DNA of 64,000 bases, from the NCBI GenBank assembly GCA_965238175.1, contig CBDEGZ010000003.1, positions 1,472,001 to 1,536,000 of the forward strand. The letters are read 5' to 3'. A program made the position numbers and the translations under genes. This document shows, piece after piece, positions 15,814 to 39,873 of the stretch. The DNA is from Gammaproteobacteria bacterium (lineage in GTDB: Bacteria > Pseudomonadota > Gammaproteobacteria > CAJXQU01). Within the stretch, counting starts at the first letter, position 1; each line of letters opens with the position of its first letter. The notes under the pieces were generated by a model. It had not been told where the DNA came from. It saw nothing but the letters and a program-made list of their open reading frames with translations, and did no database searches.

Positions 15814-16191
15814 ATGATTGTGATAGACGTATCAGTTAGAGATTGTCCTCATGGCTCAATTCTTGTGTTAGCCGGTGAGTTAAATGCAGTGACTTCGAAT
15901 GACTTATTTAAAGAAGTTATCAAACAAGCACCTAAAACCCCTGCGCATATGTTTTTTGATTTTTCCCAGCTTCGGGTTGTTACGGCTGCAGGTTTACGTA
16001 CCTTATATAAAATTTTCCAAATGACACATACAGATTGTAAGTTAATCTTTTGTGCCACTCATAATACTGCTGGCTTAATGCTCTCTAAAGTCGGCTTTCC
16101 AAATCTGGTTACATTTCACGAAAGTTTATCTATCGCACAATCGGAGATCGAAATTAGTGATTGGAGTCAGAAAGAGTTAGAAATATCATGA
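15814..16191 (+). CDS. STAS-domain (anti-anti-sigma-like) protein
   Basis: LAGELNA..FDFSQLRVVTAAGLR..GF pattern; AAGGAGG SD just before ATG 15814. Confidence 0.75.
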   Translation: MIVIDVSVRDCPHGSILVLAGELNAVTSNDLFKEVIKQAPKTPAHMFFDFSQLRVVTAAGLRTLYKIFQMTHTDCKLIFCATHNTAGLMLSKVGFPNLVTFHESLSIAQSEIEISDWSQKELEIS

Positions 16192-16283
16192 CTTAAGTAA
16201 AATTGGTGTTAAGAGTACGACCTCAAGGAAGAGGAAAACTCATAGCAAATTAATAGTAATTGAAATTTATCACGGATTGATAC

Positions 16284-18353
16284 ATGAATATAAAAAAACT
16301 CACAGGTGTACTGGCGCTTAGAAGCGACTTGCTTTTTGCGCTAGCTTTGATCTCGATTGTCTTTATGATGATCTTGCCGATACCGACGTATATCGTTGAT
16401 ATCGTCATTGGATTAAACTTAGCCACCGCTGTTGTTCTACTAATGGTTGGGGTTTATGTATCAACACCAAGTGCATTTTCAGCTTTTCCCACGATTCTAT
16501 TAATTACTACCTTATTTAGACTTTCACTATCGGTTACAACAACTCGGTTGATCTTAATAGATGCTGATGCCGGAGACATTATTTATGCTTTCGGAGACTT
16601 TGTTGTTGGCGGTAGCATGATAGTGGGTTTAGTTATCTTCCTGATCATTACCATTGTGAGTTTTGTGGTTGTGACAAAAGGTTCAGAACGAATTGCAGAA
16701 GTCAGCGCACGTTTCTCTTTGGATGGAATGCCAGGAAAACAAATGAGTATCGACAGCGATATGCGTGCTGGTTTGATTACTATAGCGAAAGCCAAAGAGC
16801 GCCGCACTGAATTAGAACAAGAAAATCGTTTGTATGGTGCAATGGATGGCGCGATGAAATTTGTCAAAGGTGATGCCATTGCAGGTTTGATCATTATTTT
16901 CGTCAATATTATTGGTGGTCTTTCTGTTGGTATTTTCCAACATGGGCTAGAAGCCTCTGAAGCTTTAGAAATCTATTCTATCTTAACTATTGGAGATGGA
17001 CTTGTTTCACAAATTCCTGCCTTAATAATCGCAGTAACTGCGGGCCTTATTGTAACGCGTGTTACATCAGAGGAAGGTAATAGTCTTGGTGAAGATATTG
17101 GTGGACAAATTAGCGCCTATCCACAAGCTATATTGATAGGCGCAGCATTATTATTTTGTTTTGCCTGGATACCTGGATTTCCAACAATAACGTTTATTTG
17201 CTTATCTGTGCTGTTAGGATTTATGGGGTTAAGAATACAGAATCGATTTACGTCAGAATCTGGAAACACCCTTGATCATGAAGAGCCTATGACACTGCAA
17301 GGAAATGGTGCTGCAACGCCTAAAGAAACTAGTTCAGAAAAAGCTTGGGCAAACACACCAATCATTCTGGAAATATCGTCATCGTTAAAAGGAATGATCA
17401 ATATTCCAAATCTGGATAGTGAAATCGCGCAGGTTAGACAAAACTTACAATCTGAAATTGGGATTGCATATCCAGGCGTTCATTTGCGTTTTAATACTGA
17501 TTTGGATGATGACCATTATTCAATTTCACTTTACGATGTTCCAGTCGTAGTCACTAGTCTTAGAACAGATGCGTTGTTAACAACCACAGATCCTGTGTTG
17601 TTGAAACAAGAAGGAGTTTCTTATTTACCTGAAACTTACGTATTGCCAGGAATGAAGGGGCATTGGGTATTAAAAGAAGATCTTGAGAATCGTACTGAAC
17701 TTAGTATCAATTTGATCTTGATTGAGCAGATTATTTCAAATCAACTTCGTTATGAATTACAGCGTAGCGCTGCCCAATTTATTGGTATCCAAGAAACATA
17801 TCATATGCTTGCACAAGTTGAGCCTGTATATGGTGAGTTAATAAAAGAAGTGTTCAGATACCTGTCAGTTAGTAAAATTGCAGATGTCTTCCGACGTTTG
17901 GTTAATGAAAATGTCTCGATTTCAAATCTCCGAATAATTCTGGAGTCATTGGCTGAGTGGGGACCACAAATTGAAGATATGGAAATTCTGACAGAGAATG
18001 TTCGCATCGATCTTAAAAATCAGATCAGTCATCAATATTCAAAGAATAAGGTGCTTCCCGTTTATCTGTTGGATCCGGAGACTGAAGAAAAATTACGTAA
18101 TAGTATTCGACAGACACCTGAAGGTGTGGGGCTTGCACTTGAGGTTGATGAGTCGAAGACTTTTCTTGGCGCAATTGCGGATTTAATCAATGGTTCAGAT
18201 CGACAGGAAGGTGCCGCTTTAATTACCACTTTAGATTTGCGTTGCCATATTCGAAAATTGACTAAGCTAGAATTTCATGATCTTCCCATTTTGTCATTTC
18301 AGGAACTGACACCACAGGTGAATGTTCAGCCACTCGGAAAAATCAGTTTTTAG
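16284..18353 (+). CDS. sctV: T3SS major export gate SctV (YscV/EscV/HrcV)
   Basis: FHIPEP motifs ERIAEVSARFSLDGMPGKQMSIDSD, GAMDGAMKFVKGDAIAG; differs from the flagellar FlhA at 46089. Confidence 0.95.
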   Translation: MNIKKLTGVLALRSDLLFALALISIVFMMILPIPTYIVDIVIGLNLATAVVLLMVGVYVSTPSAFSAFPTILLITTLFRLSLSVTTTRLILIDADAGDIIYAFGDFVVGGSMIVGLVIFLIITIVSFVVVTKGSERIAEVSARFSLDGMPGKQMSIDSDMRAGLITIAKAKERRTELEQENRLYGAMDGAMKFVKGDAIAGLIIIFVNIIGGLSVGIFQHGLEASEALEIYSILTIGDGLVSQIPALIIAVTAGLIVTRVTSEEGNSLGEDIGGQISAYPQAILIGAALLFCFAWIPGFPTITFICLSVLLGFMGLRIQNRFTSESGNTLDHEEPMTLQGNGAATPKETSSEKAWANTPIILEISSSLKGMINIPNLDSEIAQVRQNLQSEIGIAYPGVHLRFNTDLDDDHYSISLYDVPVVVTSLRTDALLTTTDPVLLKQEGVSYLPETYVLPGMKGHWVLKEDLENRTELSINLILIEQIISNQLRYELQRSAAQFIGIQETYHMLAQVEPVYGELIKEVFRYLSVSKIADVFRRLVNENVSISNLRIILESLAEWGPQIEDMEILTENVRIDLKNQISHQYSKNKVLPVYLLDPETEEKLRNSIRQTPEGVGLALEVDESKTFLGAIADLINGSDRQEGAALITTLDLRCHIRKLTKLEFHDLPILSFQELTPQVNVQPLGKISF

Positions 18354-19688
18354 GTGATGATTATGAATCAGTTTAATTACATTACGAAATCTCTGAATCA
18401 AGCCTCGAACCAGTATCAGCCATACCGGCCGAAGGGGAGAGTGATACAGGTTTCTGGAACAGTGATCAAAGCGATCATTCCACAAACTGGAATGGGTGAC
18501 ATCTGTTTGTTGCGTAATCCAGGTGATCCAAAAGGGCTTCGTGCTGAAGTGGTAGGTTTTGAAAATGAAATTGCTTTGTTGATGCCATTGGATGATGTCA
18601 ATGGGGTTTCATCAAGTACGGAAGTAATAACGAGTGGTCTAAACGATACCATTGGTGTTGGTATGGAACTAAAAGGTCGTATTCTAGATGCATTTGGAAA
18701 GCCAATAGATGAGGAAACCAATGGACCATTGAATACTCGAGAACGTTATCCAATTAATGCATCTCCTCCAAATCCTTTGACACGAGCTTCAATCAATAAG
18801 CCAATTGATTTGGGAGTAAAAGTCATCGATGGTTTTTTAGCTTGTGGTGAAGGACAACGAATGGGGATTTTTGCAGCGGCAGGCGTTGGTAAAAGTGTAC
18901 TCCTTGAAATGATGGTTAGAAATGCCAACGTCGATATGGTTGTGGTAGCACTTATTGGCGAGCGTGGACGTGAGGTTCGAGAATTTATCGAAGAGAACAT
19001 AAAAAATGGAGGTATGGAAAATACAATAATGGTCGTTGCCACTGCTGATCGTCCTCCATTGGAACGTGTTAAGGCCGCCCATTCTGCAACTGCTATCGCC
19101 GAATATTATCGTGATCAGGGTCAGCGTGTTTTGTTATTAATGGATTCGGTAACACGCTATGCAAGAGCACAGCGTGAAATTGGACTGGCTGCAGGCGAAA
19201 CACCGACAAGACGTGGTTATCCATCTTCTGTTTTTGCAAAACTGCCTAAGTTATTCGAACGAGCAGGAAATTCGTCTTCAGGATCTATTACTGCACTTTA
19301 TACAGTACTTGTTGAAGCTGATGATATGAATGAGCCTGTCGCTGATGAGGTTCGTTCTTTACTTGACGGACACATCGTTTTATCTCGAGAACTTGCCGCG
19401 AAAAATCACTACCCAGCCGTTGATGTATTAGCGAGCTTGAGTCGTTGTATGCAAAGAATTGCTGATGAAGATCATCTTTACGCTGCTGGTAAAGTCAGGC
19501 GCCTTTTGTCAAAGTTGGATGAAATAAAATTACTATTGAGAGTCGGTGAATACAAAGAAGGAACTGATCAGGAAGCGGATGAAGCAATAAGAAAGAAAGA
19601 GTTAATAGAAGCGTTTTTACAACAAGGAAGAAATGAAAATTTCACATTTGAATCTATGCTGGAACAATTAATGGAGTTAGCATCATGA
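18354..19688 (+). CDS. sctN: T3SS ATPase SctN
   Basis: [56 protein letters not shown]. Confidence 0.96.
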
Positions 19689-20206
19689 GTAACAATAGCG
19701 ATCTAAATGAATTAAAAAAAATACGAGAATTGAAATCTGAAAATCAGCAACAAGTTGTTAATCAGCTCGAACAGGAATTTCAAGAAAGAGGCACGGCGCT
19801 GAATTTGATTGATAGTACGATTGAAATGTTTAAACAAAAAAAAGTTACACTGGAAGCCGCACTTTTCACTGAAATTGAAGGAGAGGAGGTCGTTGGAGAT
19901 GAATTACATGAATATGCTGAAAAAATGAAAGAAATATCTGCTTACGGTGAAAAATTGGAAGATCAATATAGCGTTTTGCAAGAACAGCAAGTCATATCTG
20001 GGGATATGTTAAAAGAAGCACGAAATCACCTGGTAGAGTGTTGTAATGAAGTCGAGAAAATTAAACTTTTGATCGAAGAAGAACAGAAAAAAGATTCGAT
20101 TGCTAAATCCAGAAAAGAAGAAAATGAATTTGATGAAGAAGCATCTATGAAGTGGAACAGGAATCAAGTGAAACCTAAAGATCCTGAAAAAGGAAGAACA
20201 AAATGA
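19685..20206 (+). CDS. sctO: T3SS stalk SctO (YscO/FliJ-like coiled coil)
   Basis: Charged coiled-coil overlapping the sctN stop; C-terminal EENEFDE motif. Confidence 0.7.
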
Positions 20207-20829
20207 GGGGGGTAGCATTATTAATTCTAATGGGACTGTTTATCCTTCCTTCAATGGTTCAAGGGTTAAATGCAGCGGAACTAAAATGGAAGCAAACGTA
20301 TTATTCTCATTATGCAGATGGTGAAACGTTGGAAACTGTGTTGCAGGATTTAATGTATAGCGAAAAAATTCCAGTAATAGTTAGTAACAAGATAGACGCT
20401 AATGTCAATCTTTATCTGGAAGGAACGTCACCTGTTGAAGTTTTTGATCGTTTATCTAAGACATACCAATTTGTTTGGTATTACGATAATCAGGCATTGT
20501 TTGTTTATGACGTTACAGAATTGATGAGTGCAACCCTCAAGCTTGATCATATTTCTAGTGGAGAGTTCACCGATATTGTAAAAGAAATGGGTATTTATGA
20601 TCAAAAATATGGTTGGGAATACGCCAATGATCGCGATGTAATTTATTTTACTGGGCCACCAAGGCTGGTAAATTTAGTTATGGAAATGTCTGAGGTGTAC
20701 GATATAGAAAAGCCAATGAATAAATCCCAGGTGGTAGTGTACAGATGGAAAGATAAAAGTGGTGTTTCAAACTTCAGTACAAGACCACCTGAGGACCCAT
20801 CACTTTATTACTCGATGCGTGAAGAATGA
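20203..20829 (+). CDS. Truncated secretin SctC (signal peptide + N0-N1 only; RhcC1-like) with DUF4124-like tail
   Basis: YscC N-terminal motifs (IPVIVS, LSKTYQFVWYYDNQALFVY, IYFTGPPRLV); only 208 aa; no beta-barrel domain follows. Confidence 0.8.
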   Translation: MRGVALLILMGLFILPSMVQGLNAAELKWKQTYYSHYADGETLETVLQDLMYSEKIPVIVSNKIDANVNLYLEGTSPVEVFDRLSKTYQFVWYYDNQALFVYDVTELMSATLKLDHISSGEFTDIVKEMGIYDQKYGWEYANDRDVIYFTGPPRLVNLVMEMSEVYDIEKPMNKSQVVVYRWKDKSGVSNFSTRPPEDPSLYYSMREE

Positions 20830-20892
20830 GTAATAAGGAACTAAAGTTTAAGCAATAATGTCTGATTTATACGAATTAAGGTAATAATAGGA

Positions 20893-22332
20893 ATGGAAAA
20901 CAATCAAAAATCAGTGAAAATAAAGATCATCGCTGGACCAAATGAAGGTGCCGAGTCTGTGCTTAAGCCAGGGCGTTATATGTTGGGTAAAGATGATTCA
21001 TGTGATCTTGTTATTCGCGATGATAGCCTTGCAGATCATCACCTTGATCTGGAAATTTCCTTGTCTGATGAAATTGTTCTGTTTCCTCTTGGTGGAGACG
21101 TGTCAATAAATCATCAAGCTTGTGAAGCAGGTTCTCTTGTGCACTTATTTGAAACTGTCAGTCTTGGGAATACACAATTTATTATTGGACCAGGGCATTC
21201 AGGTTGGCCTGAATTGTCTGATGGTGATAGTGAAGAAAACATAAGTGAACTAACTGATAAAAATAGTTCTCCTATAATTGAAGAGCCAGTTACTGATTCT
21301 AAAAATAACAAAAGACCAAGTCTTAAGGGATTTAAGGGATTTAAGGAATTGGGAAGTAAGATAAATGAGGTGGTTACAAATTTATCTACGACCTTAGAAT
21401 CCGCTGGAGAATCAGCTTGGCAAAAATCTAAATGGATAGTAATTATTGTAGCAAGCCTTTCTGTATTGATAATTGTAGGCTCAAGTTTAGGAACGGATAT
21501 GCTTGCAACAAAGGAGGCTGCCATAACAGTTAGTCAACCTGAAGCGGTTGATTCAATTTTCGAAGATTCACAATATTCCGAAGATTTAGTAATAGAAGAC
21601 TCATCATCTGGAATGCCGGTTTTGAAAGGGTATATTGATGATGTAGAGGCGTTTAAATCTTTTAAAATAAAGTTTAATAACCTGTCGACAGATATTATTT
21701 TTGATGTGAAAAATACTACTGAACTTGCAAGCCAGGCGCAGGAAATTCTCCACTCGATGAATTTTGAAAAAGTGACACTAATGCCAATGGAGAAAGGAAA
21801 TCTTGTTGCTAAAGGTAGTATAAATGATTCAACTTCATGGTTAAGAACTAAAACTCTTATTCAAAAGGATGTGAAAGGTATTAGTTCAATTGAAGATAGT
21901 GGTATTAGAAACCAGGAAACATTTGTTCGCTATATACAGATGGTTATTAAAAAGTTATCGCTTGATAGCTTGCTAGACATAAGCGTAAACAGGGATCCAG
22001 ACTCGATCAAAGTCATAGGTAACTTATCCGAAAAGGAATATAAAAATTGGCGTCAGATTAAAAATAGTTTTCAACAGCGTTATGGCAGCCTGATCCAAAT
22101 AGATGATAAGAAGGTAACAATAAAGAAAAGAAGTTTACTTAGACTTGCAATAAAAAGTGTAAGCATTGGCGATGTTTCATATATAAAGCTTAAAGACAAT
22201 AATAAGTACATGATTGGCTCAATCGTTGATGGTGGGTACAAAATTGAAGATATCCAACCGAGTAAATTAATTTTGAGCAGAAACGACAGGAAGTTTAATT
22301 ATCTAATAGGTGAAGGAAAAAGTTATGAATGA
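20893..22332 (+). CDS. sctD: T3SS inner-membrane ring SctD (YscD/HrpQ)
   Basis: FHA-like N-terminus (GPNEGA..LGKDDSCDLVIRD..H), one TM, periplasmic repeats, YscD C-terminus IKSVSIGDVSYI. Confidence 0.88.
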   Translation: MENNQKSVKIKIIAGPNEGAESVLKPGRYMLGKDDSCDLVIRDDSLADHHLDLEISLSDEIVLFPLGGDVSINHQACEAGSLVHLFETVSLGNTQFIIGPGHSGWPELSDGDSEENISELTDKNSSPIIEEPVTDSKNNKRPSLKGFKGFKELGSKINEVVTNLSTTLESAGESAWQKSKWIVIIVASLSVLIIVGSSLGTDMLATKEAAITVSQPEAVDSIFEDSQYSEDLVIEDSSSGMPVLKGYIDDVEAFKSFKIKFNNLSTDIIFDVKNTTELASQAQEILHSMNFEKVTLMPMEKGNLVAKGSINDSTSWLRTKTLIQKDVKGISSIEDSGIRNQETFVRYIQMVIKKLSLDSLLDISVNRDPDSIKVIGNLSEKEYKNWRQIKNSFQQRYGSLIQIDDKKVTIKKRSLLRLAIKSVSIGDVSYIKLKDNNKYMIGSIVDGGYKIEDIQPSKLILSRNDRKFNYLIGEGKSYE

Positions 22333-22564
22333 ACTGATTTCAAGTGCGAATACAGAATTGGAAGTGAGCTTGCTTAATGATGTCTCGGGTGAGTTTAAGC
22401 AATCTTTAATCGAAAAGCTTAATCTTGAGAGCAACAGGATAAATCAATATCTTACGAAAGGTCTTTTGCCTGAGCAATATCAAAAATATAGCGCCTTAGT
22501 AAATGCTATTAATCAATCAATAAAAACAATCGAAAATGTGTGGGTAAGATTTCATGGAGAATAG
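22325..22564 (+). CDS. YscE/SsaE-family needle co-chaperone
   Basis: ~79 aa helical; ELEVSLLND..GLLPEQYQ..L..AI pattern; directly after sctD. Confidence 0.75.
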   Translation: MNELISSANTELEVSLLNDVSGEFKQSLIEKLNLESNRINQYLTKGLLPEQYQKYSALVNAINQSIKTIENVWVRFHGE

Positions 22565-22568
22565 AATT

Positions 22569-22979
22569 ATGGAACCAGTACAAAAAAGTAACGATCAAAA
22601 TTCTCAAATGGCAATCGAAGTTGATAAAATGTTTTTTAAAACACTCTCACAAATTGGTTATATGGCGTGTATGAAGGGTATGCCAACCGAAGGTGAAATG
22701 ATTATGGAAAGCCTGGCTGGTTTGAAATCTGAGAATTCAGCAATTTTATTAGGGTTAGCGTTTTCAAAAATCACAATGATGAAATTTACCGATGCAGAAA
22801 AGGTAATCCGTGGAGTACTTGATAAGGACGCCAAGAATTTAACAGCAAAATGTTTTCTGGGTATTACACTGTTTGGTTTAGGTGATAGAAAACAAGCACA
22901 AGTTTACTTTGCTGATGTTCTGGCATTGGGTAATGATGATGAAAAAGCCATTGCCAAAGCTTATATGTCAGTAGAATAA
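22569..22979 (+). CDS. YscG/SsaH/EscG-like TPR needle chaperone
   Basis: TPR-like helices (LSQIGYMAC, AILLGLAF, AKCFLGITL); adjacent to the YscE-like gene. Confidence 0.65.
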   Translation: MEPVQKSNDQNSQMAIEVDKMFFKTLSQIGYMACMKGMPTEGEMIMESLAGLKSENSAILLGLAFSKITMMKFTDAEKVIRGVLDKDAKNLTAKCFLGITLFGLGDRKQAQVYFADVLALGNDDEKAIAKAYMSVE

Positions 22980-23004
22980 TTAAATTAAAGTAGAGGTATC
23001 TAAA

Positions 23005-23628
23005 ATGATAGAAGCAATTGAAGCAGCAACTGCATATAGTCAGACGCTAGATGTTAGCCAGTTATCACCAGGACAGACAACACAGCTAGACGCATCTCAT
23101 CAAAATATCGCGACGATTATTCAGCAGGCCGAAATGTTAGATCAAAATGGTGGAATAAACCAGCTTCCAAACGCCATCGAAACAAGTTCTTTGAAAAATA
23201 TTGGTGAGGAGCAAAGCTTTGGAGATAAGTTGTTCGGCAGAGTTTCAATGATGGATGGCAAATATACTGATATTATGGATCGCATGAAGAACGATTGGCC
23301 AGGTTATGGCAAAAACTTGGCAGAAAGAGGTGTATCTCTAAAGCAAGGATTAGAGAGTGGTGGAGGGATCACTCATATTTCAAATATCGGCAAAGGTGCC
23401 GAGGTTGGTAAACCTCAAACTCTTGAAGAAACAGTCAGCAATAGAATAGAACAAATGGAGCAATTTCGATCGAAGCAGGCTACATTTCAAGCTGCAGCTA
23501 TTCAAGCCGCACAAGATACAACATTTTGGTCTATGAGTGCAAAGATGTGGATGACAAAAGTGCAGGTTTTGACATCTGCAGTTTCTCAAATCAGTACTGG
23601 TTTCAGAACGTTATTCAACGCGCAGTAA
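23005..23628 (+). CDS. Probable T3SS inner rod SctI (long variant)
   Basis: C-terminus LTSAVSQISTGFRTLFNAQ resembles YscI/HrpB2/EscI; N-terminus MIEAIEAA. Confidence 0.6.
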   Translation: MIEAIEAATAYSQTLDVSQLSPGQTTQLDASHQNIATIIQQAEMLDQNGGINQLPNAIETSSLKNIGEEQSFGDKLFGRVSMMDGKYTDIMDRMKNDWPGYGKNLAERGVSLKQGLESGGGITHISNIGKGAEVGKPQTLEETVSNRIEQMEQFRSKQATFQAAAIQAAQDTTFWSMSAKMWMTKVQVLTSAVSQISTGFRTLFNAQ

Positions 23629-23652
23629 ATAAAGATATCTAATTAACTAAGT

Positions 23653-23785
23653 TGTAGAAGTTTAGACCCAATCTGACACATCACTAAATCAAGCTGAGCG
23701 TAGCAATGCTTGATTTAGTGAGAGTTACCCGCTTTGATGTAACTGCACGTAGACATCAAAACATAAAGAGGTAACTCTCATGATT
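23653..23785 (+). mobile_element. Degenerate left end of an older IS481-family copy
   Basis: Near-identical to 23786-23919 (IRL through the transposase start ATGATT), with a few substitutions. Confidence 0.85.
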
Positions 23786-25011
23786 TGTAGAAGTTTAGAC
23801 CCAATCTGACACATCACTAAATCAAGCGGAGCGTAGCGACGCTTGATTTAGTGAGAGTTACCCGCTTTGATGTAACTGCAACGTAAACATCAAAACACAA
23901 AGAGGTAACTCTCATGATTCATACTAATGACAAAGTTATAAAACATAAAGTTGGTCTACTCAATCTCGCTGAAGAACTCGGCAATGTCTCAAAAGCCTGC
24001 AAGATGATGGGTTTGTCCAGAGATACATTTTATCGCTACAAAGAAGCGGCTGATGAAGGCGGTGTAGAAGCCTTGTTTGATCGTAATCGGCGTACCCCAA
24101 ATCTTAAAAACAGAATCGACCCGGCTATTGAAACCGTTGTGCTCGAGTATGCACTGGAAGAGCCCGCACATGGTCAAACGCGCACCAGTAACGAGCTGCG
24201 CAAACGGGGAACATTTGTCTCACCCAGTGGCGTTCGTTGTATCTGGCTTCGTCATGGTCTTGCTTGCTTTAAAGATCGCCTGAAGGCATTGTCTGATAAG
24301 GTAGCTGGTGAAGGCTTGATCCTCACTGAGTCTCAAGTCGCGGCGATGGAACGCAAGAAAGACGACGATGAGGCTTGTGGCGAGATAGAGACGGCACACC
24401 CTGGTTATCTTGGCTCGCAAGATACTTACTATGTCGGTACTTTCAAAGGCATTGGTCGGGTTTATCAACAAACGTTTGTTGATACTTACAGCAAGGTCGC
24501 TCACGCGAAACTGTACCCGACTAAAACACCGATTACGGCAGCTGACATGCTCAATGACCGCGTCCTCCCATTCTACGAAGAACAACGTTTGCCTATGTTG
24601 CGCATTTTGACAGATAGAGGGACGGAGTATTGTGGGCGAGCTGACCAGCATGATTATCAGCTTTATATGGCGTTGAACAATATCGAACACACCAAAACCA
24701 AGGTCAAATCACCTCAGACGAATGGTATTTGTGAGCGATTCCATAAGACGATCCTCAATGAGTTTTATCAAGTCGCTTTGCGTAAGAAAATTTACCAATC
24801 GATTGATGAACTGCAACTCGACCTTGACGAATGGTTGCTCAAATACAATACTCAACGAACTCACCAAGGCAAAATGTGCTGCGGGAGGACGCCGATGGAA
24901 ACACTCATCGACGGACAAGCTATCTGGAAGGAAAAGTTTGTGAATTAAACTTAACCTGACAGTCGGTTACTGATAATTGGGTAACTGTCAGATCAAATCT
25001 GAATTTCTACA
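23786..25011 (+). mobile_element. Complete IS481-family insertion sequence (1226 bp)
   Basis: 26-bp imperfect TIRs TGTAGAAGTTTAGACCCAATCTGACA / TGTCAGATCAAATCTGAATTTCTACA; 7-bp direct repeat CATGATT at 23779-85 and 25012-18. Confidence 0.93.
23914..24948 (+). CDS. IS481-family DDE transposase
   Basis: HTH (GNVSKACKMMGLSRDTFYRY) plus rve core (GSQDT, LTDRGTEY, PQTNGICERFH). Confidence 0.95.
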   Translation: MIHTNDKVIKHKVGLLNLAEELGNVSKACKMMGLSRDTFYRYKEAADEGGVEALFDRNRRTPNLKNRIDPAIETVVLEYALEEPAHGQTRTSNELRKRGTFVSPSGVRCIWLRHGLACFKDRLKALSDKVAGEGLILTESQVAAMERKKDDDEACGEIETAHPGYLGSQDTYYVGTFKGIGRVYQQTFVDTYSKVAHAKLYPTKTPITAADMLNDRVLPFYEEQRLPMLRILTDRGTEYCGRADQHDYQLYMALNNIEHTKTKVKSPQTNGICERFHKTILNEFYQVALRKKIYQSIDELQLDLDEWLLKYNTQRTHQGKMCCGRTPMETLIDGQAIWKEKFVN

Positions 25012-25117
25012 CATGATTCATAATTTGCGAGGCTGGCGGGTTTATAGCCCCCTCCAGAGGATTTTCATCATACCACCCGCTTTGCGGGTGGTTGCTGATT
25101 ACTGTATGTTTAAAATA

Positions 25118-25628
25118 TTAACCGCCAAACACTGCAGCCCAGCCAGCTGCTCGTCTATGCTCTGGTGTTTCTCTTCGGTCATGCGCAATCCTCCAAGGGT
25201 TTCCACTACTATAACTAGAACCGCTTCCTCCCTCAGTGCTTAAATATTGTGCCCAATAAACAGATAATTCTGCCTGTTCTCTTTGCTGGCCCTCGCCTAC
25301 ATAAAAACTATTTATTTTTTCAGCTTTTTTCTGTCTGAAGTTGAACAAGGCACCATCTAAAACTTCCTGTGAAACGTCCTGTTCCAAAATTCTTGCTGCA
25401 GATGTAATGATATCTACCGCACCATCCCTCTCTGTTAGAGTGAGCCGCCTCTCTTTGTCCGCCTAATGTATTCCTGCCAAACAAAGCATTACGCCAAGGG
25501 TTCGCTACTTCTCTAATTCTAATGTTTAAAGCATTATCATCTCCACTTCGTCCATGTGCAGCTAAGAACGCATTGGTATCTCTTGTGAACTGCGCATCTG
25601 TATTGGTCGGGTTGAACCCGCCAATTCA
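25118..25628 (-). pseudogene. Frameshifted remnant of a hypothetical gene (candidate T3SS substrate)
   Basis: Two overlapping open frames (IGGFNPTNTDAQF... and ...ILEQDVSQEVLDG...) directly downstream of a copy of the island promoter. Confidence 0.4.
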
Positions 25629-25630
25629 TA

Positions 25631-25740
25631 AACCACTGAACGTAATTATGCTGGCAAGAAAATATTAATAATATTATTCTTATGGACTAATACTTTATTC
25701 TTACTAGATTAATATCTTTGTATTACTAGTACGTTAAACA
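25631..25740 (-). promoter_or_regulatory. Island promoter block, copy 3
   Basis: Reverse complement TGTTTAACGTACTAGTAATACAAA...AAGTATTAGTCCATAAGAATAAT..TTAATATTTTCTT..CATAATTACGTTCAGTGGTTT aligns with 35714-35812. Confidence 0.7.
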
Positions 25741-25831
25741 GAAGTGTTGCACCAATTTTAGGACAGGTCAAATAAAAGGCAGATAAGCTCTCAGAAACAT
25801 TGATACGCTGATACCCTCTGTACAATATTTT

Positions 25832-26569: not shown

Positions 26570-26575
26570 CTGAAT

Positions 26576-28260: not shown

Positions 28261-28277
28261 TTATGAAGACTCCTTTT

Positions 28278-29063: not shown

Positions 29064-29087
29064 GATGTTTAGGTCGTAACGATATGG

Positions 29088-29363: not shown

Positions 29364-29372
29364 TTACCGTGA

Positions 29373-30029: not shown

Positions 30030-30032
30030 ACT

Positions 30033-31142: not shown

Positions 31143-31144
31143 CT

Positions 31145-31735
31145 TTAAAATGGACCTCCATCAGAACTCGTGTGATCAAGATCGATGTTAGTACGGAAAA
31201 TATCTTCCAGCTGAGCTATTTTTTGATCAGCATTGACATGCACCACACCCATTTCAGATTCGATTATGCAATCATCTTTCTCAATACGATGATCAGCTAC
31301 CACATTAACTTTTCCAGACAAGGATTCTATATCTCTTAATCTAAGTAAGGTTTTATGAGGAATGCTTGGCGAAATTCTAAGTGTGATTTCTCGTGCGTTA
31401 GATAATTCAGATAAACTTTGCTGCACTGATTGAACTAAAAATTCATCAGGCTCGTAGTTTGCAACAATTTTCCTAATATTATTCAAGACAACATCAACAA
31501 TGTCATTCTCTAATTGTTGAACGTAATCAATAGAGTCAGAAACAAGTGATAAAGATTCTGCAAGCGCTTGAGATTTTGCATCCTCTTGTCCTTGAATCAA
31601 TCCTTTTTTATAGGCAATTTTGCAGATTGTTTCTGCGTAGGCCAGGATATCTTCTGCTTTTTGCTGATTCGAATCATTAGTTTGAACAGACTCAAGTATC
31701 TCGTCTACATCATTAGATTTAATTATATTCTTCAT
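31145..31735 (-). CDS. sctL: T3SS stator SctL (YscL/FliH family)
   Basis: AYKKGLIQGQEDA GxxxG repeat, C-terminal DCIIESEMGVV. Confidence 0.85.
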   Translation of the reverse strand: MKNIIKSNDVDEILESVQTNDSNQQKAEDILAYAETICKIAYKKGLIQGQEDAKSQALAESLSLVSDSIDYVQQLENDIVDVVLNNIRKIVANYEPDEFLVQSVQQSLSELSNAREITLRISPSIPHKTLLRLRDIESLSGKVNVVADHRIEKDDCIIESEMGVVHVNADQKIAQLEDIFRTNIDLDHTSSDGGPF

Positions 31736-32447
31736 GGATCACTCCTTGATCAAGGGTCGAGGTATTTTCAGTTTTTACATGGATTGAATTATGCTCAAAA
31801 TGATCCGTTAATAACCTTATTAATTCCACACAATTTGATTTCTTATAAGCAGTCATTTGATTTCGATTAGACAAATAAGAAAGACTATTTTTTCCAAGCT
31901 TTAATATAAGGCGAGTTACCAGTGCCTTGCTTTCATTGTTGAGCGCTCGACCTAAAACAATTAGTCCATTAGCAAAAACTTGTGTCTTTAATGGCTTTTT
32001 CATATCGAATCTAACCTGAGTTAAATTTGGAATTTGGCGACACATAGTCGTTGCTTCATGAATAGCGAAGATATACATATCGGTACCGAGTTGATTTTTA
32101 AACTCTATAACATCGCTCTTCATAATCGTTTGTTTTATTTGATCACAAACGGATACTACACCGAGTAACATAACAAACTTTGATAACTCAAGAGGAGATA
32201 ACAAACTTATTTTTTGTGTAGGAGTCTTAAATTTCAGAAGAGGAGTATCTTTCAATTTAAAATGTTCCAGAACTATTTTTGAGACAGCAACTTCAGCTTC
32301 AGTTTTATGGCTAAGGATCCTGAGTTCTTTTCCATCCTTTATGTTTTCCCACCAGCTGTCGTGTAGATACCGGGTGGGTAAAAAGTTCAGAACATAAGAC
32401 TTATCAAATATTTTCTCAGTCATTACACCCACCTTAGATAGATCCAT
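31719..32447 (-). CDS. Probable sorting-platform protein SctK
   Basis: Lies between sctJ and sctL; FLPTRYLHDSW and RLILKL motifs resemble YscK/OrgA. Confidence 0.65.
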   Translation of the reverse strand: MDLSKVGVMTEKIFDKSYVLNFLPTRYLHDSWWENIKDGKELRILSHKTEAEVAVSKIVLEHFKLKDTPLLKFKTPTQKISLLSPLELSKFVMLLGVVSVCDQIKQTIMKSDVIEFKNQLGTDMYIFAIHEATTMCRQIPNLTQVRFDMKKPLKTQVFANGLIVLGRALNNESKALVTRLILKLGKNSLSYLSNRNQMTAYKKSNCVELIRLLTDHFEHNSIHVKTENTSTLDQGVIHEEYN

Positions 32448-33318
32448 TAACAGTTTGTCGTACTGACGCCTTTTTCCTTGAGCTTACGGGTGCTTGATTT
32501 TTATCATTTACCTTCTTAACAAGTAGGCCAATAATAACCAGCATTACAAGAAAAAATATTACAAACAGGCTAATAATAAAACGAATTGTAGTTGCAGATT
32601 CTGTTGGAACACGAACACCTGAAACACTGGTCCAGCGAGACGAGGTTTCATCAGATTCTATTGAGTTAGTTGCAGGCAGAATGACGACAGATATCTTGTC
32701 GTACGTTAAACCCTCGATACTTTTCTCAACAATAAATTTGATCTCGGATTTGAAATCTTCAAGATTGCTATTTGCTAAGGATTTAATAAAAACAGAAGCT
32801 GAAGATGGCTTTATATCTTCATTAAAAGGATTATTCTCAGGTAAAACGATATGAACTCGTGCGGTGACAACACCATCAATACGTGACAAGGTCTCTTGAA
32901 CTTCTTGCTTTAAGGCATAGATATATCTAACGCGTTCTTCAATAGGTGAGGAAATCAGCCCTTTTTTGTCAAAAAGATCAGTCACCTTCACAAAAGTTTC
33001 TCTTGGAAAGCCCTTTTGTTTCAATAAAGACAACGCAGAAGGGACTTGTGATTTTTCGATATGTATTGAAAGTGTTTTATCTTTCTTATCGACAACCTTG
33101 TCTGTACTTACCCCATTACTTAACAGGATTGCCATCATCTGATTTGCATCTTCTTCACTTAAATTAGTGAATAAAGGCTCTTTACACGAACTAAGAACCA
33201 ACAACAACATGAAAGCAGAAAAAAGCTTGACCAAACACACACGATCTAATTTTGGGGAAGATAGTGATATATAACGACTGTAACATTCCATATTCATAAC
33301 CGGACTCCTTTCCGACAA
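32434..33318 (-). CDS. sctJ: T3SS inner-ring lipoprotein SctJ
   Basis: Lipobox LSSC, LSEEDANQM, GLISSPIEE, IDGVVTARVHIVLP, SASVFIK, C-terminal TM. Start codon uncertain. Confidence 0.95.
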   Translation of the reverse strand: MSERSPVMNMECYSRYISLSSPKLDRVCLVKLFSAFMLLLVLSSCKEPLFTNLSEEDANQMMAILLSNGVSTDKVVDKKDKTLSIHIEKSQVPSALSLLKQKGFPRETFVKVTDLFDKKGLISSPIEERVRYIYALKQEVQETLSRIDGVVTARVHIVLPENNPFNEDIKPSSASVFIKSLANSNLEDFKSEIKFIVEKSIEGLTYDKISVVILPATNSIESDETSSRWTSVSGVRVPTESATTIRFIISLFVIFFLVMLVIIGLLVKKVNDKNQAPVSSRKKASVRQTVNGSI

Positions 33319-33620
33319 GAAGCGCTACATTAACAGAAAAACTGTGAGTGATAACTAGCTACTATAAGAAAATAATGAAAACAAATGTTTCCAGATATTC
33401 AGCTTGCAAGTCAAAATTTTGTTGAGGTTTATGTCAATATCTAGTTATATTAATTTAATATCAATAGGTTAACTACCACTTTAATATTTGCGGATCGACT
33501 CAGGAGGTAAGCATTTTATAAAATAAACATCAGTCCAAAATACGAATTAATATTGTTAAAAATATATTCTTCTGTGAAAATAGCCACTCAGAACTTACCT
33601 AATCCAATAAGAGTGATAAT

Positions 33621-33866
33621 ATGGTCGGCAGCGTAGACATTAGTGATTTAACATTAAAGCAGTTACTGCACTTCTATCAAGATGCTGTTACTGCGGGTAA
33701 TAACCAGCCTTTTAAACAGAGAAGTCAATCAGAAACTAAAATGACTGACCAACAGGATATAAAGAAATTTTCTGAGGCCATGGATAATCCATCTGATACC
33801 CAACCCAAGGTTGATCAAAGTCTTGCTAATATTGTGGATGATCTAATTAAAATAATCGGTGAATAA
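33621..33866 (+). CDS. Small hypothetical protein OrfA1 (paralog of 39628-39873)
   Basis: Shares DLTLKQLL..Y, QQDI.KFS and DQ.L..IVD.LIK.IG with 39628-39873. Confidence 0.75.
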   Translation: MVGSVDISDLTLKQLLHFYQDAVTAGNNQPFKQRSQSETKMTDQQDIKKFSEAMDNPSDTQPKVDQSLANIVDDLIKIIGE

Positions 33867-35901: not shown

Positions 35902-36126
35902 ATGTTTGGTATTTTTGAAGGTTTAATTCAAGGGCAAGAGCAACGACAGGCACAATCTCTTGCGGCTCAATCTAGAATACAACAGTCGAGTCAAGATCAT
36001 GAAGCAATGTCATCTATGATGAAATTGGAATTTGATGTGGTAATGGCGACGATTGAAAGATTAGCTTCTGTCGGCGAGAAAGTTGCAAATCTTACAGAAA
36101 CACAATCACAGCAACTTGCTAACTAA
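35902..36126 (+). CDS. Small helical protein, candidate T3SS pilin/needle subunit 2
   Basis: 74 aa, SD AAGGAGA, Q/S/A-rich helix; DVVMATI..TETQSQQ resembles DSVMAKI..TDRQSER of 34097. Confidence 0.6.
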   Translation: MFGIFEGLIQGQEQRQAQSLAAQSRIQQSSQDHEAMSSMMKLEFDVVMATIERLASVGEKVANLTETQSQQLAN

Positions 36127-36221
36127 TTAAGCAGTTATCGATAGAAATAATTTATAAATTATATATTTAAAAGAAATAGCTAATAAATTAAATTATAAAA
36201 ATAACTAAATGAATTAAATTA

Positions 36222-36254
36222 AGGTGCTAACGAAAAAGTTAGCACCTATTTTTT
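36222..36254 (+). terminator. Intrinsic terminator/attenuator between the pilin-like ORF and the collagen gene
   Basis: AGGTGCTAAC-GAAAAA-GTTAGCACCT followed by ATTTTTT. Confidence 0.8.
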
Positions 36255-36273
36255 AAATTCAATAAATAATTTC

Positions 36274-36312
36274 AAGAATTAATCAGGTTAAATAAGAATT
36301 AATCAGGTTAAA
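36274..36312 (+). repeat. Tandem 19-bp direct repeat before the collagen gene RBS
   Basis: AAGAATTAATCAGGTTAAA at 36274 and 36294. Confidence 0.85.
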
Positions 36313-36325
36313 AAGGAGAAAAAAA

Positions 36326-39289
36326 ATGAACGGAGTAACCGGAGCAGGGCCAGGACCAAGCGTATACAATCTACCCAAAGATGGACAAGGAGGCTTTGCA
36401 ACCAAACAAGGAGGCTTTGCAACCAAAGAGGGTCGCAACGGACCAGGAATAGGGCCAAATGGGCAAGCTGGATCATTTTACTCAGGCTTTATCCCAGCAG
36501 GACAACCAGGAACACCAGGATCACCAGGATCACCAGGACGACCAGGAGTCGGATCACCAGGATCACCAGGACGACCAGGAGTCGGATCACCAGGATTACC
36601 AGGACGACCAGGAACACCAGGAACACCAGGAACACCAGGACAACAAGGGGTCGGACCAACAGGAGCACCAGGAGCACCAGGAAACCCAGGATTTGGAAAC
36701 CCAGGAACCCCTGGTCAGAATGGAAACCCTGGACAGCCAGGTCAGCGAGGACCAACAGGATATGGAAACCCAGGAACCCCTGGACAGAATGGAAACCCTG
36801 GAAACCCAGGTCAGCTTGGACCCCAAGGATTCCGAGGAAACCCAGGTCAGCTTGGACCCCAAGGATTCCGAGGAAACCCTGGTCAGAATGGAAACCCTGG
36901 ACAGCCAGGTCAGCGAGGACCAACAGGATATGGAAACCCAGGAACCCCTGGACAGAATGGAAACCCTGGAAACCCAGGTCAGCTTGGACCCCAAGGATTC
37001 CGAGGAAACCCTGGTCAGAATGGAAACCCTGGACAGCCAGGTCAGCTTGGACCCCAAGGATTCCGAGGAACCCCTGGTCAGAATGGAAACCCTGGACAGC
37101 CAGGTCAGCGAGGACCAACAGGATATGGAAACCCAGGAACCCCTGGTCAGAATGGAAACCCTGGACAGCCAGGTCAGCGAGGACCAACAGGATATGGAAA
37201 CCCAGGAACCCCTGGACAGAATGGAAACCCTGGAAACCCAGGTCAGCTTGGACCCCAAGGATTCCGAGGAACCCCTGGTCAGAATGGAAGCCCTGGACAG
37301 CCAGGTCAGCGAGGACCAACAGGATATGGAAACCCAGGAACCCCTGGACAGAATGGAAACCCTGGACAGCCAGGTCAGCGAGGAGCAACAGGATACCCTG
37401 GTGCTCCTGGTATAGGAACCCCTGGTCGGAATGGAACCCCTGGTCAGCTTGGACCCCAAGGATTCCGAGGAAACCCTGGTCCGCAAGGACGAACAGGATA
37501 CCCTGGTGCTCCTGGTATAGGAACTCCTGGTCGGGATGGTCAGCCAGGAGCCCAAGGAGCCTCTGGTCGGGATGGTCAGCCAGGAGCCCAAGGAGCCTCT
37601 GGTCGGAATGGTCAGCCAGGAGCCCAAGGAGCCTCTGGTCGGGATGGTCAGCCAGGAGCCCAAGGAGCCTCTGGTCGGAATGGTCAGCCAGGAGCCCAAG
37701 GAGCCTCTGGTCGGGATGGTCAGCCAGGAGCCCAAGGAGCCTCTGGTCGGGATGGTCAGCCAGGAGCCCAAGGAGCTACAGGTGCTACAGGTGTAGGACA
37801 AATAGGTGCTTCAGGCGAAGGTTTCATCGAATGGTTCACTAGAGTGGAGGGTGATCAAAATGGAGATGACGTAATAACTAGAGAAGACGTCAGAATCTGG
37901 TTAAGAGGTGATAAAGGTGACACTGGAGCACCTGGAGCAACTGGAGCAACTGGAGCAACTGGAGCAACTGGAGCAACTGGAACACCTGGAGCAACTGGAC
38001 AAGCCGGAGCGAAAGGTGACAGAGGTGATAGAGGTTACAATGGAGCACCTGGAGCAACTGGACAAGCCGGAGCGAAAGGTGACAGAGGTGATAGAGGTTA
38101 CAATGGAGCACCTGGAGCAACTGGACAAGCCGGAGCGAAAGGTGACAGAGGTGATAGAGGTTACAATGGAGCACCTGGAGCAACTGGACAAGCCGGAGCG
38201 AAAGGTGACAGAGGTGATAGAGGTTACAATGGAGCACCTGGAGCAACTGGACAAGCCGGAGCGAAAGGTGACAGAGGTGATAGAGGTTACAATGGAGCAC
38301 CTGGAGCAACTGGACAAGCCGGAGCGAAAGGTGACAGAGGTGATAGAGGTTACAATGGAGCAACTGGAGCAACTGGAGCACCTGGAGCACCTGGAGCAAC
38401 TGGACAAGCCGGAGCGAAAGGTGACAGAGGTGATAGAGGTTACAATGGAGCACCTGGACGAGATGGTGAGCGAGGTGAGCGAGGTGAGCGAGGTAGGAAT
38501 GGCTACAATGGTCGAGATGGTCAGCCTGGTAGGAATGGCGGACATGGCGGATATGGCCCAGTAGGTCGTCCGGGACCAAGTGGTCCGAGTCCAAGTGGTC
38601 CGTATCCAAGTGGTCCGAACCCAAGTGGTCCGAGACCAAGTGGTCCGAACCCAAGTGGTCCAGGTACAAGCCCAACACGCCCGACAAGCCCGAGCCCAGC
38701 ATGTGCAAATGATAATGGTAGGTTTAGTCAGCAGCTGGAACAGCTTACACAACTTCTTAGCCGACTCACTGAATTACTCAGTAGTTTCTCAGGTGGCGGG
38801 AATGGCGGGAAAGGTGGTGGTTACCCAAGCACAGGTGGTGGTTACCCAGGATCAGCAGGACCAGCAGGATCGCCAGGTGAAAGAGGTTACCCAGGATCAG
38901 CAGGACCAGTAGGACCAGTAGGACCGCGAGGTTACAATGGTATGGACGGTAGGGACGGCATGATAGGACCACCGGGACCAGCAGGACCACCGGGACCAGC
39001 AGGACCAGCAGGACCAGCAGGACCAGCAGGATCGCAAGGTGAAAGGGGTTACCCAGGACCAGCAGGACCAGCAGGATCGCAAGGTGAAAGGGGTTACCCA
39101 GGACCAGCAGGACCAGCAGGATCGAAAGGTGGCGGTGGTGGCTACTCTCATAGCACGGGGAGATCATCAACATTTGATACAATAAATAATGTACTGAGAA
39201 CCTTGGCGCCTATTTCGAATGTGATCGAAGGTTTGATCAATGCGTTCAGCGGCGGTGGCTCGCGGTCTCATAGTGGGGGTGGTTATTAA
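36326..39289 (+). CDS. Collagen-like (Gly-X-Y repeat) protein with harpin-like helices; no Sec signal
   Basis: 987 aa, mostly G-X-Y triplets in several repeat blocks; SD AAGGAGA; non-collagen islands near aa 495-530, 770-830 and 935-987. Confidence 0.92.
36500..39125 (+). repeat. Coding tandem-repeat arrays (9-, 36-, 63-bp and longer units)
   Basis: 36-bp units at 37528-37775; 63-bp [21 protein letters not shown] units x7 at ~37990-38455; 15-bp GPxPS units at 38573-38660. Confidence 0.95.
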
Positions 39290-39332
39290 GCTCAATGTTC
39301 CAACAGCTTAAACTTATGTTTAGGTCAATAAA

Positions 39333-39361
39333 TGAGGAGGAAAGGTTTCCTTTCCTCCTCA
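39333..39361 (+). terminator. Perfect 13-bp hairpin after the collagen gene
   Basis: TGAGGAGGAAAGG-TTT-CCTTTCCTCCTCA; no strong U-tract. Confidence 0.65.
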
Positions 39362-39627
39362 AGCATTGAAAAAGTAGAGCTGATAGTAAAAGTAACAAAA
39401 GGATTTTTTGCGTCGCATACGTAGTCGTTATTTTGATTACGAGGGAAACTTGATATCCTGATAAAAAGAAAGCGGCTTCGGTACAGACAAAGATTTTTTG
39501 ATTTGTACTGAAGCCACATTCTCAAGTAGTAGGTGCAGTATTTAATTTTTAATGAGTGGAACAGTGAGTATTGTAAACTGTTAATGAAAGGGACTTAGAA
39601 GTAGTAAACGACTTAGGAGTATAAACA

Positions 39628-39873
39628 ATGACTGAAAACTCTAATCTTGGTGATTTAACTCTGAAACAGCTTTTACAGCTGTATAAGGTGCCTGCACCTG
39701 CAAGAGGTGAAGGGGAGTTAGAAGGAAACGTTCCTGCAAGTCAGCAGCAGGAAGATATTGATAAGTTTTCTTCTATAACATCTGATAGATCGGTTGGTTC
39801 TTCTCTAGACGATAAAATTGATCAAAATCTTGTGCGCATTGTTGATAACTTGATCAAAAGTATTGGTTCATAA
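39628..39873 (+). CDS. Small hypothetical protein OrfA2 (paralog of 33621-33866)
   Basis: SD AGGAG; same length (81 aa) and shared terminal motifs with OrfA1. Confidence 0.75.
   Translation: MTENSNLGDLTLKQLLQLYKVPAPARGEGELEGNVPASQQQEDIDKFSSITSDRSVGSSLDDKIDQNLVRIVDNLIKSIGS

Follow-up and report, generated by a model that had tools for sequence, protein, structure and literature searches.

Type III secretion system (T3SS) biology is built on two models, the flagellum and the host-injecting needle, and variants that lack a secretin or a substrate switch are usually dismissed as relics. Here we describe a variant of this kind: an intact non-flagellar T3SS at positions 15775-39873 of a 64,000-nucleotide stretch of gammaproteobacterial DNA (G000:C3:1472001-1536000; the window, whose coordinates are used throughout). 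The genome has 3.35 Mb and its assembly is 97.7% complete. The island encodes a short SctC, an SctU without the NPTH motif and a collagen-like protein.

Several described systems invite comparison. The rhizobial Rhc systems divide the secretin between two proteins: RhcC1, an N-terminal homologue of the T3SS secretin that is thought to link to SctD, and RhcC2, which comes from a Tad locus (PMC3459982). SctP is reported as missing from all Rhc subgroups, and in subgroup III, that of R. etli, rhcC1 occurs without rhcC2; the rhizobial T3SSs are treated as functional effector-delivery systems (PMC3574062, PMC3973906). The T3SS* of Myxococcus is described as having no dedicated secretin, needle or translocon and as acting with a Tad-like apparatus (PMC10849154; our comparison with it also draws on PMC3459982). 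Finally, Bucl4 of the Burkholderia T3SS-2 has a collagen tract inside an SctT-like protein (PMC4565658).

In the island, the inner-membrane export apparatus, the ATPase complex and the sorting platform are complete. We found sctV, N, O, D, E, G, J, K, L, Q, R, S, T and U, with every core open reading frame (ORF) open. Pfam and NCBIfam matches place sctJ, N, Q, R, S, T, U and V with the non-flagellar type, equivalog cut-offs are exceeded by SctV, SctN, SctJ, SctQ and SctD, the SctD C-terminus is of the Y4YQ_C type (Pfam Y4YQ_C, E 1.9e-12), and SctK is supported by Pfam YscK (E 3.2e-16). The island is a member of a distinct Thiotrichales-type T3SS lineage that combines an Rhc subgroup III-like design with a Ysc-like gene order. 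We put at about one in two the probability that it is a working exporter, with the collagen-like protein among its cargo, within a conserved T3SS lineage centred on the Thiotrichales.

A connector-only SctC and an SctU without NPTH

Our comparisons used 80 loci, obtained by scanning species-representative genomes with an alignment of NPTH-less SctU; 29 of them (L025-L053) are from Thiotrichales records (Thiothrix, Thiolinea and uncultured forms). The SctC ORF of the island aligns with positions 2-143 of the 463 in TIGR02516 only. It consists of a signal peptide, the N0 and N1 domains and a conserved Y-(R/K)-W-x-D-x-x-G tail, and the secretin pore domain is missing. An AlphaFold model (pLDDT 77) superposes on N0-N1 of InvG, MxiD and EscC, with structure matches to InvG N0-N1 (4g08, E 3.8e-11, TMt 0.80) and MxiD N0N1 (6rwk, TMt 0.86). 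The N0-N1 connector docks on SctD in solved injectisomes. The short SctC is an RhcC1-like connector without a pore, with 17-27% identity to RhcC1 homologues.

The same short form recurs in the relatives. All 19 Thiotrichales loci that reach sctC (10 other contigs stop short of it) have orthologues of 210-232 amino acids, and tblastn found a secretin pore domain in 0/29 Thiotrichales loci against 19/80 loci overall, all in the rhizobial-type group. A full SctC, scored as TIGR02516 over its cut-off, was found in 0/5 Thiothrix/Thiolinea genomes, each of which gave only an N-terminal match, in open frames of 220-244 amino acids. Within the Thiothrix order, a profile built on the short SctC matched in 67 of 107 genomes (open frames of 183-371 amino acids).

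When we searched the whole genome of the window, no TIGR02516 match exceeded the cut-off. PF00263 matched six times, and the genome holds five other full secretins; the T3SS-negative kin have 6, 6, 6 and 8 PF00263 matches (two of the 8 in one 595-amino-acid frame) and the T3SS-bearing sister species, G002, has 7. The count is like that of T3SS-negative kin and so does not point to an extra pore dedicated to the system. We considered a 289-amino-acid secretin-like protein near purB as an RhcC2 analogue and rejected it, as each of the other five genomes of the genus that were searched has a match, with a T3SS or without. This exported protein (G000:C3:1800061-1800945; L006:1432-2301) has a weak partial secretin-domain match and lies between an adenylosuccinate-lyase-like fragment and a TonB-like gene.

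SctU reads ...IVTDYANVAIAICY... at the site where relatives have NPTH, with DYAN aligned there; without NPTH, the usual SctU self-cleavage would not be expected. The motif is absent from SctU in 29/29 Thiotrichales-type loci. Our SctU alignments also brought out that functional Rhc systems are without it: Rhc-I of a Bradyrhizobium plasmid (L107) has GPAM, Rhc-II of NGR234 pNGR234b (L110) has EEGA, and NPTH is missing in all 17 Rhc-clade rows. Myxococcota SctU, the only protein compared there, has NPTH or a near-variant (NPTE, NPVH) in the loci compared. The main text of two Rhc papers makes no mention of NPTH (PMC3574062, PMC3973906), and a literature search on absent NPTH autocleavage found no paper on NPTH-less systems.

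The genes sctE and sctG overlap, which leaves no room for a gene between them: the F slot is empty, and so is the H slot. The SctG-like protein is 28-37% identical to the products of Thiothrix G genes, and in 17/17 Thiothrix-type loci that hold both E and G an ORF of 67-83 amino acids stands between them. The empty E-G slot is the sole departure special to this genus.

Searches for the remaining injectisome parts were negative. In the whole genome there were 0 matches at E<=1 for the needle (PF09392), gatekeeper (PF07201) and translocator (PF04888) families, and no CesT match over the cut-off. BLAST with YscF, YscP, YopN/TyeA, LcrV and YopB/D of pYV, a search of low sensitivity, gave 0 matches in the island and the 29 loci. 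Two Flg_hook (FliK-type) proteins about 1.2 Mb away were rejected as island rulers, both being found in 7/7 genomes of the genus, including five without a T3SS; moonlighting as a ruler is possible. They have 316 and 450 amino acids (G000:C3:2717486-2718433 and 2725944-2727293; L116) and lie among metabolic genes, outside any flagellar or T3SS cluster; no fliK is found upstream of fliL in the window.

These results agree with much of an earlier note on this DNA, which had described a secretin cut to N0-N1, an SctU lacking NPTH, a missing needle gene between the E- and G-like chaperones, and no recognisable SctP, SctW, tip, hydrophobic translocator or class I/II chaperone in the window. It had named full-length sctC, sctF, sctP/W and translocon genes elsewhere in the genome as evidence that would speak against its view; family models found none tied to the system. 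Its core gene set in two convergent operons is likewise borne out for V, N, O, D, J, K, L, Q, R, S, T and U, while its sctI is recognised by position and a conserved C-terminus only. This 207-amino-acid ORF ends in ...VSQ(I/V)S.GF.TLF.A. and stayed without a match in Pfam, in NCBIfam and in a profile search of the PDB; nine homologues scanned with Pfam at E<=5 likewise yielded nothing relevant. With the family models silent, we treat it as a putative SctI.

Selection, lineage and comparison with known systems

We estimated the ratio of nonsynonymous to synonymous substitution rates (dN/dS, NG86) between the island and contig C29 of the sister species. All 21 island genes compared gave 0.065-0.44, at dS of 0.6-1.26, which is near saturation; the flanking hom and thrC gave 0.025 and 0.084. 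The island is under purifying selection and is not decaying. The sister is collinear with the window over 8357-23638 and 25847-33862. The segment between, 23639-25846 (2.2 kb), contains an IS481-like insertion sequence (IS) and is absent from the sister, which joins both operons directly, so the insertion removed or interrupted no gene. This transposase between the operons had been missed in the earlier note; it marks a recent, incidental insert. A relatives search found short SctC in 2/61 genomes (G000 and G002), and the island is present in 2/7 species of the genus; the other five genus genomes gave FlhA-level SctV matches only (32-37% identity, plus one 51% fragment).

Could the island be the relic of an injectisome that has lost its pore, needle, ruler, gatekeeper and translocon? 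The IS inside the block, the IS expansion in the genome and the presence in 2/7 species of the genus would fit such decay. Every ORF is open, however, dN/dS lies at 0.065-0.44 (dS about 0.6-1.26), no gene is broken by the IS, and 29 loci and 67 genomes have kept the same "defects". The comparative data largely refute decay, which we consider highly improbable, and the earlier view that this is no simple decay, which rested on core ORFs without frameshifts, is borne out by dN/dS. A short SctC, an SctU without NPTH and a lack of SctP, SctW and translocon genes are lineage traits and were not made in this island. The proposal that the island had been "rebuilt" finds no support, given that its departures recur in 29 loci and 67/107 genomes and that only the empty E-G slot is genus-specific.

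We placed the island with a tree of concatenated SctV, N, J, R, S, T and U (42 rows, quick LG+G4 search) that leaves out the Hrp1, Chlamydiales and Myxococcales families. The window joins L025 and then two uncultured Thiotrichales loci (support 99), and all 14 Thiotrichales-type rows form one clade (SH-aLRT 100). This clade joins the Ysc, Rhizobium gallicum plasmid, SPI-2 and SPI-1 representatives (SH-aLRT 93), and a 17-row rhizobial-type clade stands apart from it in the free tree. In an approximately unbiased (AU) test, a tree uniting the Thiotrichales and Rhc clades was not rejected; it was 2.54 log-likelihood units better (p-AU 0.563). A tree of SctC N-domains also has a Thiotrichales-type clade (20 rows, support 99), separate from the RhcC1 clade. 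The Rhizobium gallicum plasmid T3SS (L106) has NPTH, SctW and a needle gene and groups with Ysc, not Rhc. A literature search on the T3SS of Thiothrix gave incidental mentions only, although such systems may already figure in the supplementary trees of PMC3459982, and a literature survey search found nothing on a Thiotrichales-type T3SS lineage.

Among plasmid records, SctV is most like the Ysc family of Yersinia pYV (L105; 47-48% identity), with core identities to the island of 58% for N, 53% for R and 51% for S. Gene order is also alike: Ysc runs yscC-D-E-F-G-(H)-I-J-K-L and N-O-(P)-Q-R-S-T-U, and the island has homologues of E, G and K. Ysc differs in its full secretin of 607 amino acids and its NPTH, and in having YscF, YscP, YopN/TyeA, LcrV and YopB/D, for which family models and BLAST gave nothing here.

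The likeness to Rhc lies in other features: a short N-terminal SctC comparable to RhcC1/NolW (197-256 amino acids in the loci compared), the NPTH-less SctU, the absence of SctP (PMC3574062) and the Y4YQ_C match of SctD. Subgroup III of R. etli, in the sources cited above, has rhcC1 without rhcC2, as the island has a connector-only SctC. In contrast to Rhc, no Tad-derived RhcC2 is found in the Thiotrichales loci or in this genome, the island has E/G co-chaperones and SctK in the Ysc-like order C-D-E-(F)-G-I-J-K-L, and many Thiotrichales clusters have a collagen-like or transglutaminase gene in or beside them. NopA/B/X-type genes were not noticed in the island, where no search aimed at them was made.

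The earlier note had reasoned that a system without NPTH, a ruler and a full secretin may be no injectisome. This does not follow. Because the Rhc systems share the short SctC and NPTH-less SctU, "switch-less" does not equal "not an injectisome". Taken one by one, all the departures have precedents, three of them in systems that deliver effectors. That Rhc-I and Rhc-II share these traits, are reported without SctP (PMC3574062) and yet deliver effectors also weighs against our own reading of the island as a matrix exporter.

A conventional, contact-dependent effector delivery like that of Rhc-I thus has to be weighed, with the needle, translocon, effectors and pore either divergent or encoded elsewhere and the collagen-like protein an adhesin, an effector or a mere neighbour. 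L107 and L110 share the short SctC and NPTH-less SctU, Rhc is reported with a split secretin and without SctP (PMC3574062, PMC3973906, PMC3459982), and the AU test does not reject joining the two clades (p 0.563). E, G and an F-slot gene are kept in 17/17 Thiothrix-type loci, the fast evolution of needle and translocon proteins makes them easy to miss, and some 57 IS copies hint at a host-restricted lifestyle. Nevertheless, searches of the loci and the genome turned up neither an RhcC2-type nor any other additional secretin, the SseC, HrpJ and needle families gave 0 matches at E<=1 in the genome, and the island has no large hydrophobic ORF. The system is also widespread in Thiothrix and Thiolinea (67/107 genomes), which are free-living filamentous sulfur bacteria not known to be intracellular or host-injecting. 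On balance we regard Rhc-I-like delivery as unlikely, though a serious contender.

It is improbable, in our estimate, that the system is a secretin-less and needle-less exporter that delivers to the periplasm or cooperates with another envelope machine, as Myxococcus T3SS* does with a Tad-like system. The island and, as described, T3SS* (PMC10849154) both lack a dedicated pore and a recognisable needle or translocon; no pore domain is linked to the island, and five other full secretins are present in its genome. Unlike T3SS*, however, the island keeps an N0-N1 SctC and E/G, and Thiothrix also has an F-slot subunit. The constraint on connector and tail (dN/dS 0.11) suggests a docking partner in the outer membrane, and the E/G co-chaperones and F-slot subunit imply an extracellular polymer. 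The lineages differ as well, given the NPTH or near-variant in Myxococcota SctU (the sole protein of that group in the comparison).

Collagen-like and transglutaminase genes

The collagen-like ORF has 205 GXY triplets in runs of at least 8 and is the only ORF in the genome with such a run. By eye, its product has no hydrophobic N-terminal Sec signal and no cell-wall or outer-membrane anchor. Besides the collagen tracts it carries a GF(I/F)EWF...D.DG.(V/I)T..DVR.WL module, which we take to resemble an EF-hand or dockerin-type loop, and LxxLLxxLxxLL helices that recur across the collagen-like proteins of these loci. The module is 50% identical over 30 amino acids between the window and L026 proteins (E 5e-8). 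GC content is 0.49-0.52 over the gene (window 36000-40000) and 0.35-0.40 around it; GGN/CCN codons account for the increase, which therefore does not point to a transfer of its own. Several tandem arrays within the gene, with periods of 36, 63 and 69 bp, are almost perfect.

Collagen-like ORFs stand beside T3SS genes in 6/29 Thiotrichales-type loci (L025, L026, L028, L029, L032 and L047), with Pfam Collagen confirmed for L026 and L029, and adjoin the T3SS in 0/51 other loci and 0/8 reference loci. The sister species has one at the same position, which runs off the contig. At least three branches contain loci with a collagen-like gene, namely those of the window's subclade, of L047 and of L029. 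The link between collagen gene and T3SS claimed in the earlier note was thus found again in six further loci. In 11 other loci of the 29 (L033, L036, L038, L040, L042, L043, L045, L046, L049, L050 and L053), a transglutaminase gene (about 410 amino acids, Pfam TGL E 4.9e-25; for example L045:5872-7098) lies between the short sctC and sctQ. The L045 protein has an LTQLLP..LL motif near its N-terminus, as in the collagen-like proteins. The window's genome has no TGL homologue. The loci are mutually related, so these counts are not independent events.

Like the Scl, Bcl, Lcl and Bucl proteins, the collagen-like protein has long Gly-X-Y tracts flanked by non-collagen modules; it differs from them in having neither Sec signal nor anchor (by eye) and in having a T3SS as neighbour in at least seven loci. 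Bucl4, the only T3SS-collagen link that we found in print, is different, its tract lying within an SctT-like protein and not in a separate neighbouring gene. To our knowledge, an association of a T3SS with collagen-like and transglutaminase genes has not been described so far.

The needle slot offers a second lead to substrates. We built a hidden Markov model (HMM) from the 17 Thiothrix F-slot ORFs and ran it on the six-frame translation of the whole genome; the genome-wide top match was o74, a small ORF between sctJ and the collagen-like gene. It is kept in the sister species (46% identity in a two-sequence alignment; 57% over the C-terminal 37 residues by BLASTP), and a terminator-like hairpin follows it at 36222-36247. 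We regard o74 as the best candidate, and a likely one, for a displaced needle or pilus filament subunit. A predicted complex of SctE, SctG and o74 scored 0.38 and one control 0.45, which speaks neither for binding nor against it. Four small ORFs, of 81, 73, 74 and 81 amino acids, were counted here, where two pilin-sized ORFs had been reported before. For o73 we found no homologue in the sister contig and no alignment with o74; o81a had no family match, and a protein-atlas search gave nothing. Across 15 small proteins scanned with Pfam, one (1/15) had a weak HrpA_pilin match (E 0.018).

We propose that such a system would work as follows. Small helical proteins encoded beside sctJ (o74, perhaps o81a and o81b) and the signal-less collagen-like protein would be exported, as would the transglutaminase in many Thiothrix, and would build or decorate a surface fibre or matrix in place of a host-piercing needle with translocon. 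Export would be essentially one-mode, with no cleavable switch, ruler or gatekeeper. The outer membrane might be crossed through a partner docking on the conserved tail of the short SctC, either a secretin taken over from another machine, in the way that Rhc acquired one from Tad, or a non-secretin channel. The fibre or matrix exporter proposed in the earlier note remains reasonable on this basis: the selection data and the recurring collagen link speak for it, while its argument from non-injection has to be dropped.

Several observations count against the matrix-exporter reading. The system is known here from genes alone, and gene adjacency is the sole basis for export of the collagen-like protein by the T3SS. 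Of the six other collagen-like ORFs, five end at a contig end and are mostly partial, the L026 gene being complete. Neither a collagen-like nor a TGL gene was present in the stretch examined in 12/29 related loci, and on several long Thiothrix contigs the surrounding 10 kb is free of collagen genes. The F-slot match of o74 (E 0.21) is not significant alone. Absences were judged by Pfam/NCBIfam and BLAST, which miss fast-evolving needle, tip and translocon proteins; BLAST failed to detect even the E and G genes. Finally, dS is close to saturation for a simple NG86 estimate.

Whether the matrix-exporter reading extends to the whole order is more doubtful. We hold it possible, at odds well short of even, that the Thiotrichales, with a few gammaproteobacteria close to them, have an order-wide third functional class of T3SS besides flagellum and injectisome, a one-mode exporter with no cleaving switch, ruler or pore of its own. 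Its dedicated cargo would be matrix blocks, namely collagen-like fibres in some lineages and a cross-linking transglutaminase in others. If true, it might serve a sheath, a holdfast, aggregates or attachment to host surfaces. In either case, a variant with a connector-only SctC and NPTH-less SctU is conserved under selection and occurs in 67/107 genomes of one order; its carriers include Thiolinea disciformis DSM 14473, Thiothrix eikelboomii ATCC 49788 and Thiothrix caldifontis DSM 21228, cultivable strains that are not known to be harmful. This makes testable how a T3SS passes the outer membrane without its own secretin, what purpose the NPTH switch serves, and whether structural matrix proteins (collagen-like chains, transglutaminases) are exported by a T3SS.

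Gene layout and neighbourhood

The island consists of two convergent operons between hom/thrC and an S4-domain hslR-like gene (Table 1). The plus-strand operon runs from the STAS-domain gene through sctV, sctN, sctO, the short sctC, sctD, sctE and sctG to the putative sctI. The minus-strand operon holds sctJ, K, L, Q, R, S, T and U, a LuxR-type response regulator and a HExxH protein, and beyond sctJ the four small ORFs and the collagen-like ORF lie on the plus strand.

Table 1. Features of the T3SS island and its flanks, in window coordinates.
Feature	Position	Strand	Evidence and remarks
hom/thrC	12808-15608		left flank
STAS-domain protein	15775-16191	+	Pfam STAS E 1.4e-8; dN/dS 0.24
sctV, export gate	16284-18353	+	FHIPEP E 1.2e-211; TIGR01399 834 bits, cut-off 692; dN/dS 0.11
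sctN, ATPase	18354-19688	+	TIGR02546 605.7 bits, cut-off 604.75; dN/dS 0.07
sctO, stalk	19685-20206	+	Pfam YscO E 5.4e-8
short SctC, 208 aa	20203-20829	+	partial TIGR02516; Pfam T3S_SPI-1_N0 and Secretin_N; dN/dS 0.11
sctD, inner-membrane ring	20893-22332	+	Pfam Yop-YscD_cpl, ppl_2nd, ppl_3rd; TIGR02500 109.9 bits, cut-off 86
sctE-like co-chaperone	22310-22564	+	TIGR02501 43.7 bits, cut-off 38.25; alignment
sctG-like TPR co-chaperone	22554-22979	+	CdsG (E 7.6e-10) and TPR_19, both below cut-off
207-aa ORF, sctI position (putative)	23005-23628	+	homologues between G and J in Thiothrix loci; dN/dS 0.32
IS481-like insertion sequence	23786-25011	+	transposase 23914-24948; Pfam HTH_29/rve_3/rve
245-aa exported HExxH protein	25832-26569	-	HEVFH motif; dN/dS 0.10
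LuxR-type response regulator	26576-27214	-	Pfam GerE E 2.9e-18; downstream of sctU
sctU	27211-28260	-	Pfam Bac_export_2 E 3e-72; DYAN replaces NPTH; dN/dS 0.15
sctT, sctS, sctR, sctQ, sctL, sctK, sctJ	28278-33318	-	Pfam and NCBIfam; dN/dS 0.065-0.17
o81a, 81 aa	33621-33866	+	paralogue of o81b; 57% identity in sister species
o73, 73 aa	34097-34318	+	no relative detected; gene status uncertain
o74, 74 aa, Gln-rich	35902-36126	+	F-slot HMM top match, E 0.21; dN/dS 0.44
collagen-like protein, 987 aa	36326-39289	+	Pfam Collagen E 8.5e-96, 9 stretches
o81b, 81 aa	39628-39873	+	o81a paralogue, 36% identity; closes block
S4-domain hslR-like gene	39983-40429		right flank

STAS ORFs upstream of sctV are also found in L031, L042, L046 and L051, a position conserved in Thiothrix-type clusters. 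Thiothrix/Thiolinea clusters have genes for a membrane protein of the NfeD-like kind and for a STAS-domain protein ahead of sctV (L031:11136-12007, L045:11151-11678); the window retains the STAS gene only, and not the NfeD-like one. In L045 a cNMP-binding protein follows sctK. The LuxR-type regulator is at the same position in L030 and L032 (41-43% identity).

The 245-amino-acid protein has a signal peptide, HEVFH and a downstream NALEEG; it is 83% identical in the sister species and absent from Thiothrix loci. Judging by these motifs, it may be a zinc metallopeptidase restricted to this genus. Pfam found no match and a PDB sequence search nothing under E 0.1, protein-atlas leads to MA-clan peptidases were weak (under 0.9), and the predicted fold (pLDDT 34) was unusable. 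That it might process the collagen-like protein is pure speculation.

An Rfam scan of 15000-41000 gave a single psRNA2 match, sub-threshold and inside the IS end. The IS481-like element is about 1226 bp long. Counting copies that reach 1200 bp and are at least 99.7% identical, the genome contains 57, which together make up about 71 kb; a small population or a lifestyle that shifted recently may lie behind this expansion. Just upstream of the island copy, 135 bp of the IS end are present once more as a partial duplicate. The roughly 830 bp between the IS and the 245-amino-acid gene (25012-25846) are unique in the genome, absent from the sister and hold no convincing ORF.

Synteny next to thrC is broken in three T3SS-negative kin, where 13 kb beside thrC has no homologue of window ORFs of at least 100 amino acids (8000-46500) except thrC. 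On the other side, a flagellar cluster begins directly after the hslR-like gene, with fliL at 40438 and a separate flagellar FlhA at about 46167-48137. The two T3SS-type machines, island and flagellar cluster, are thus chromosomal neighbours.

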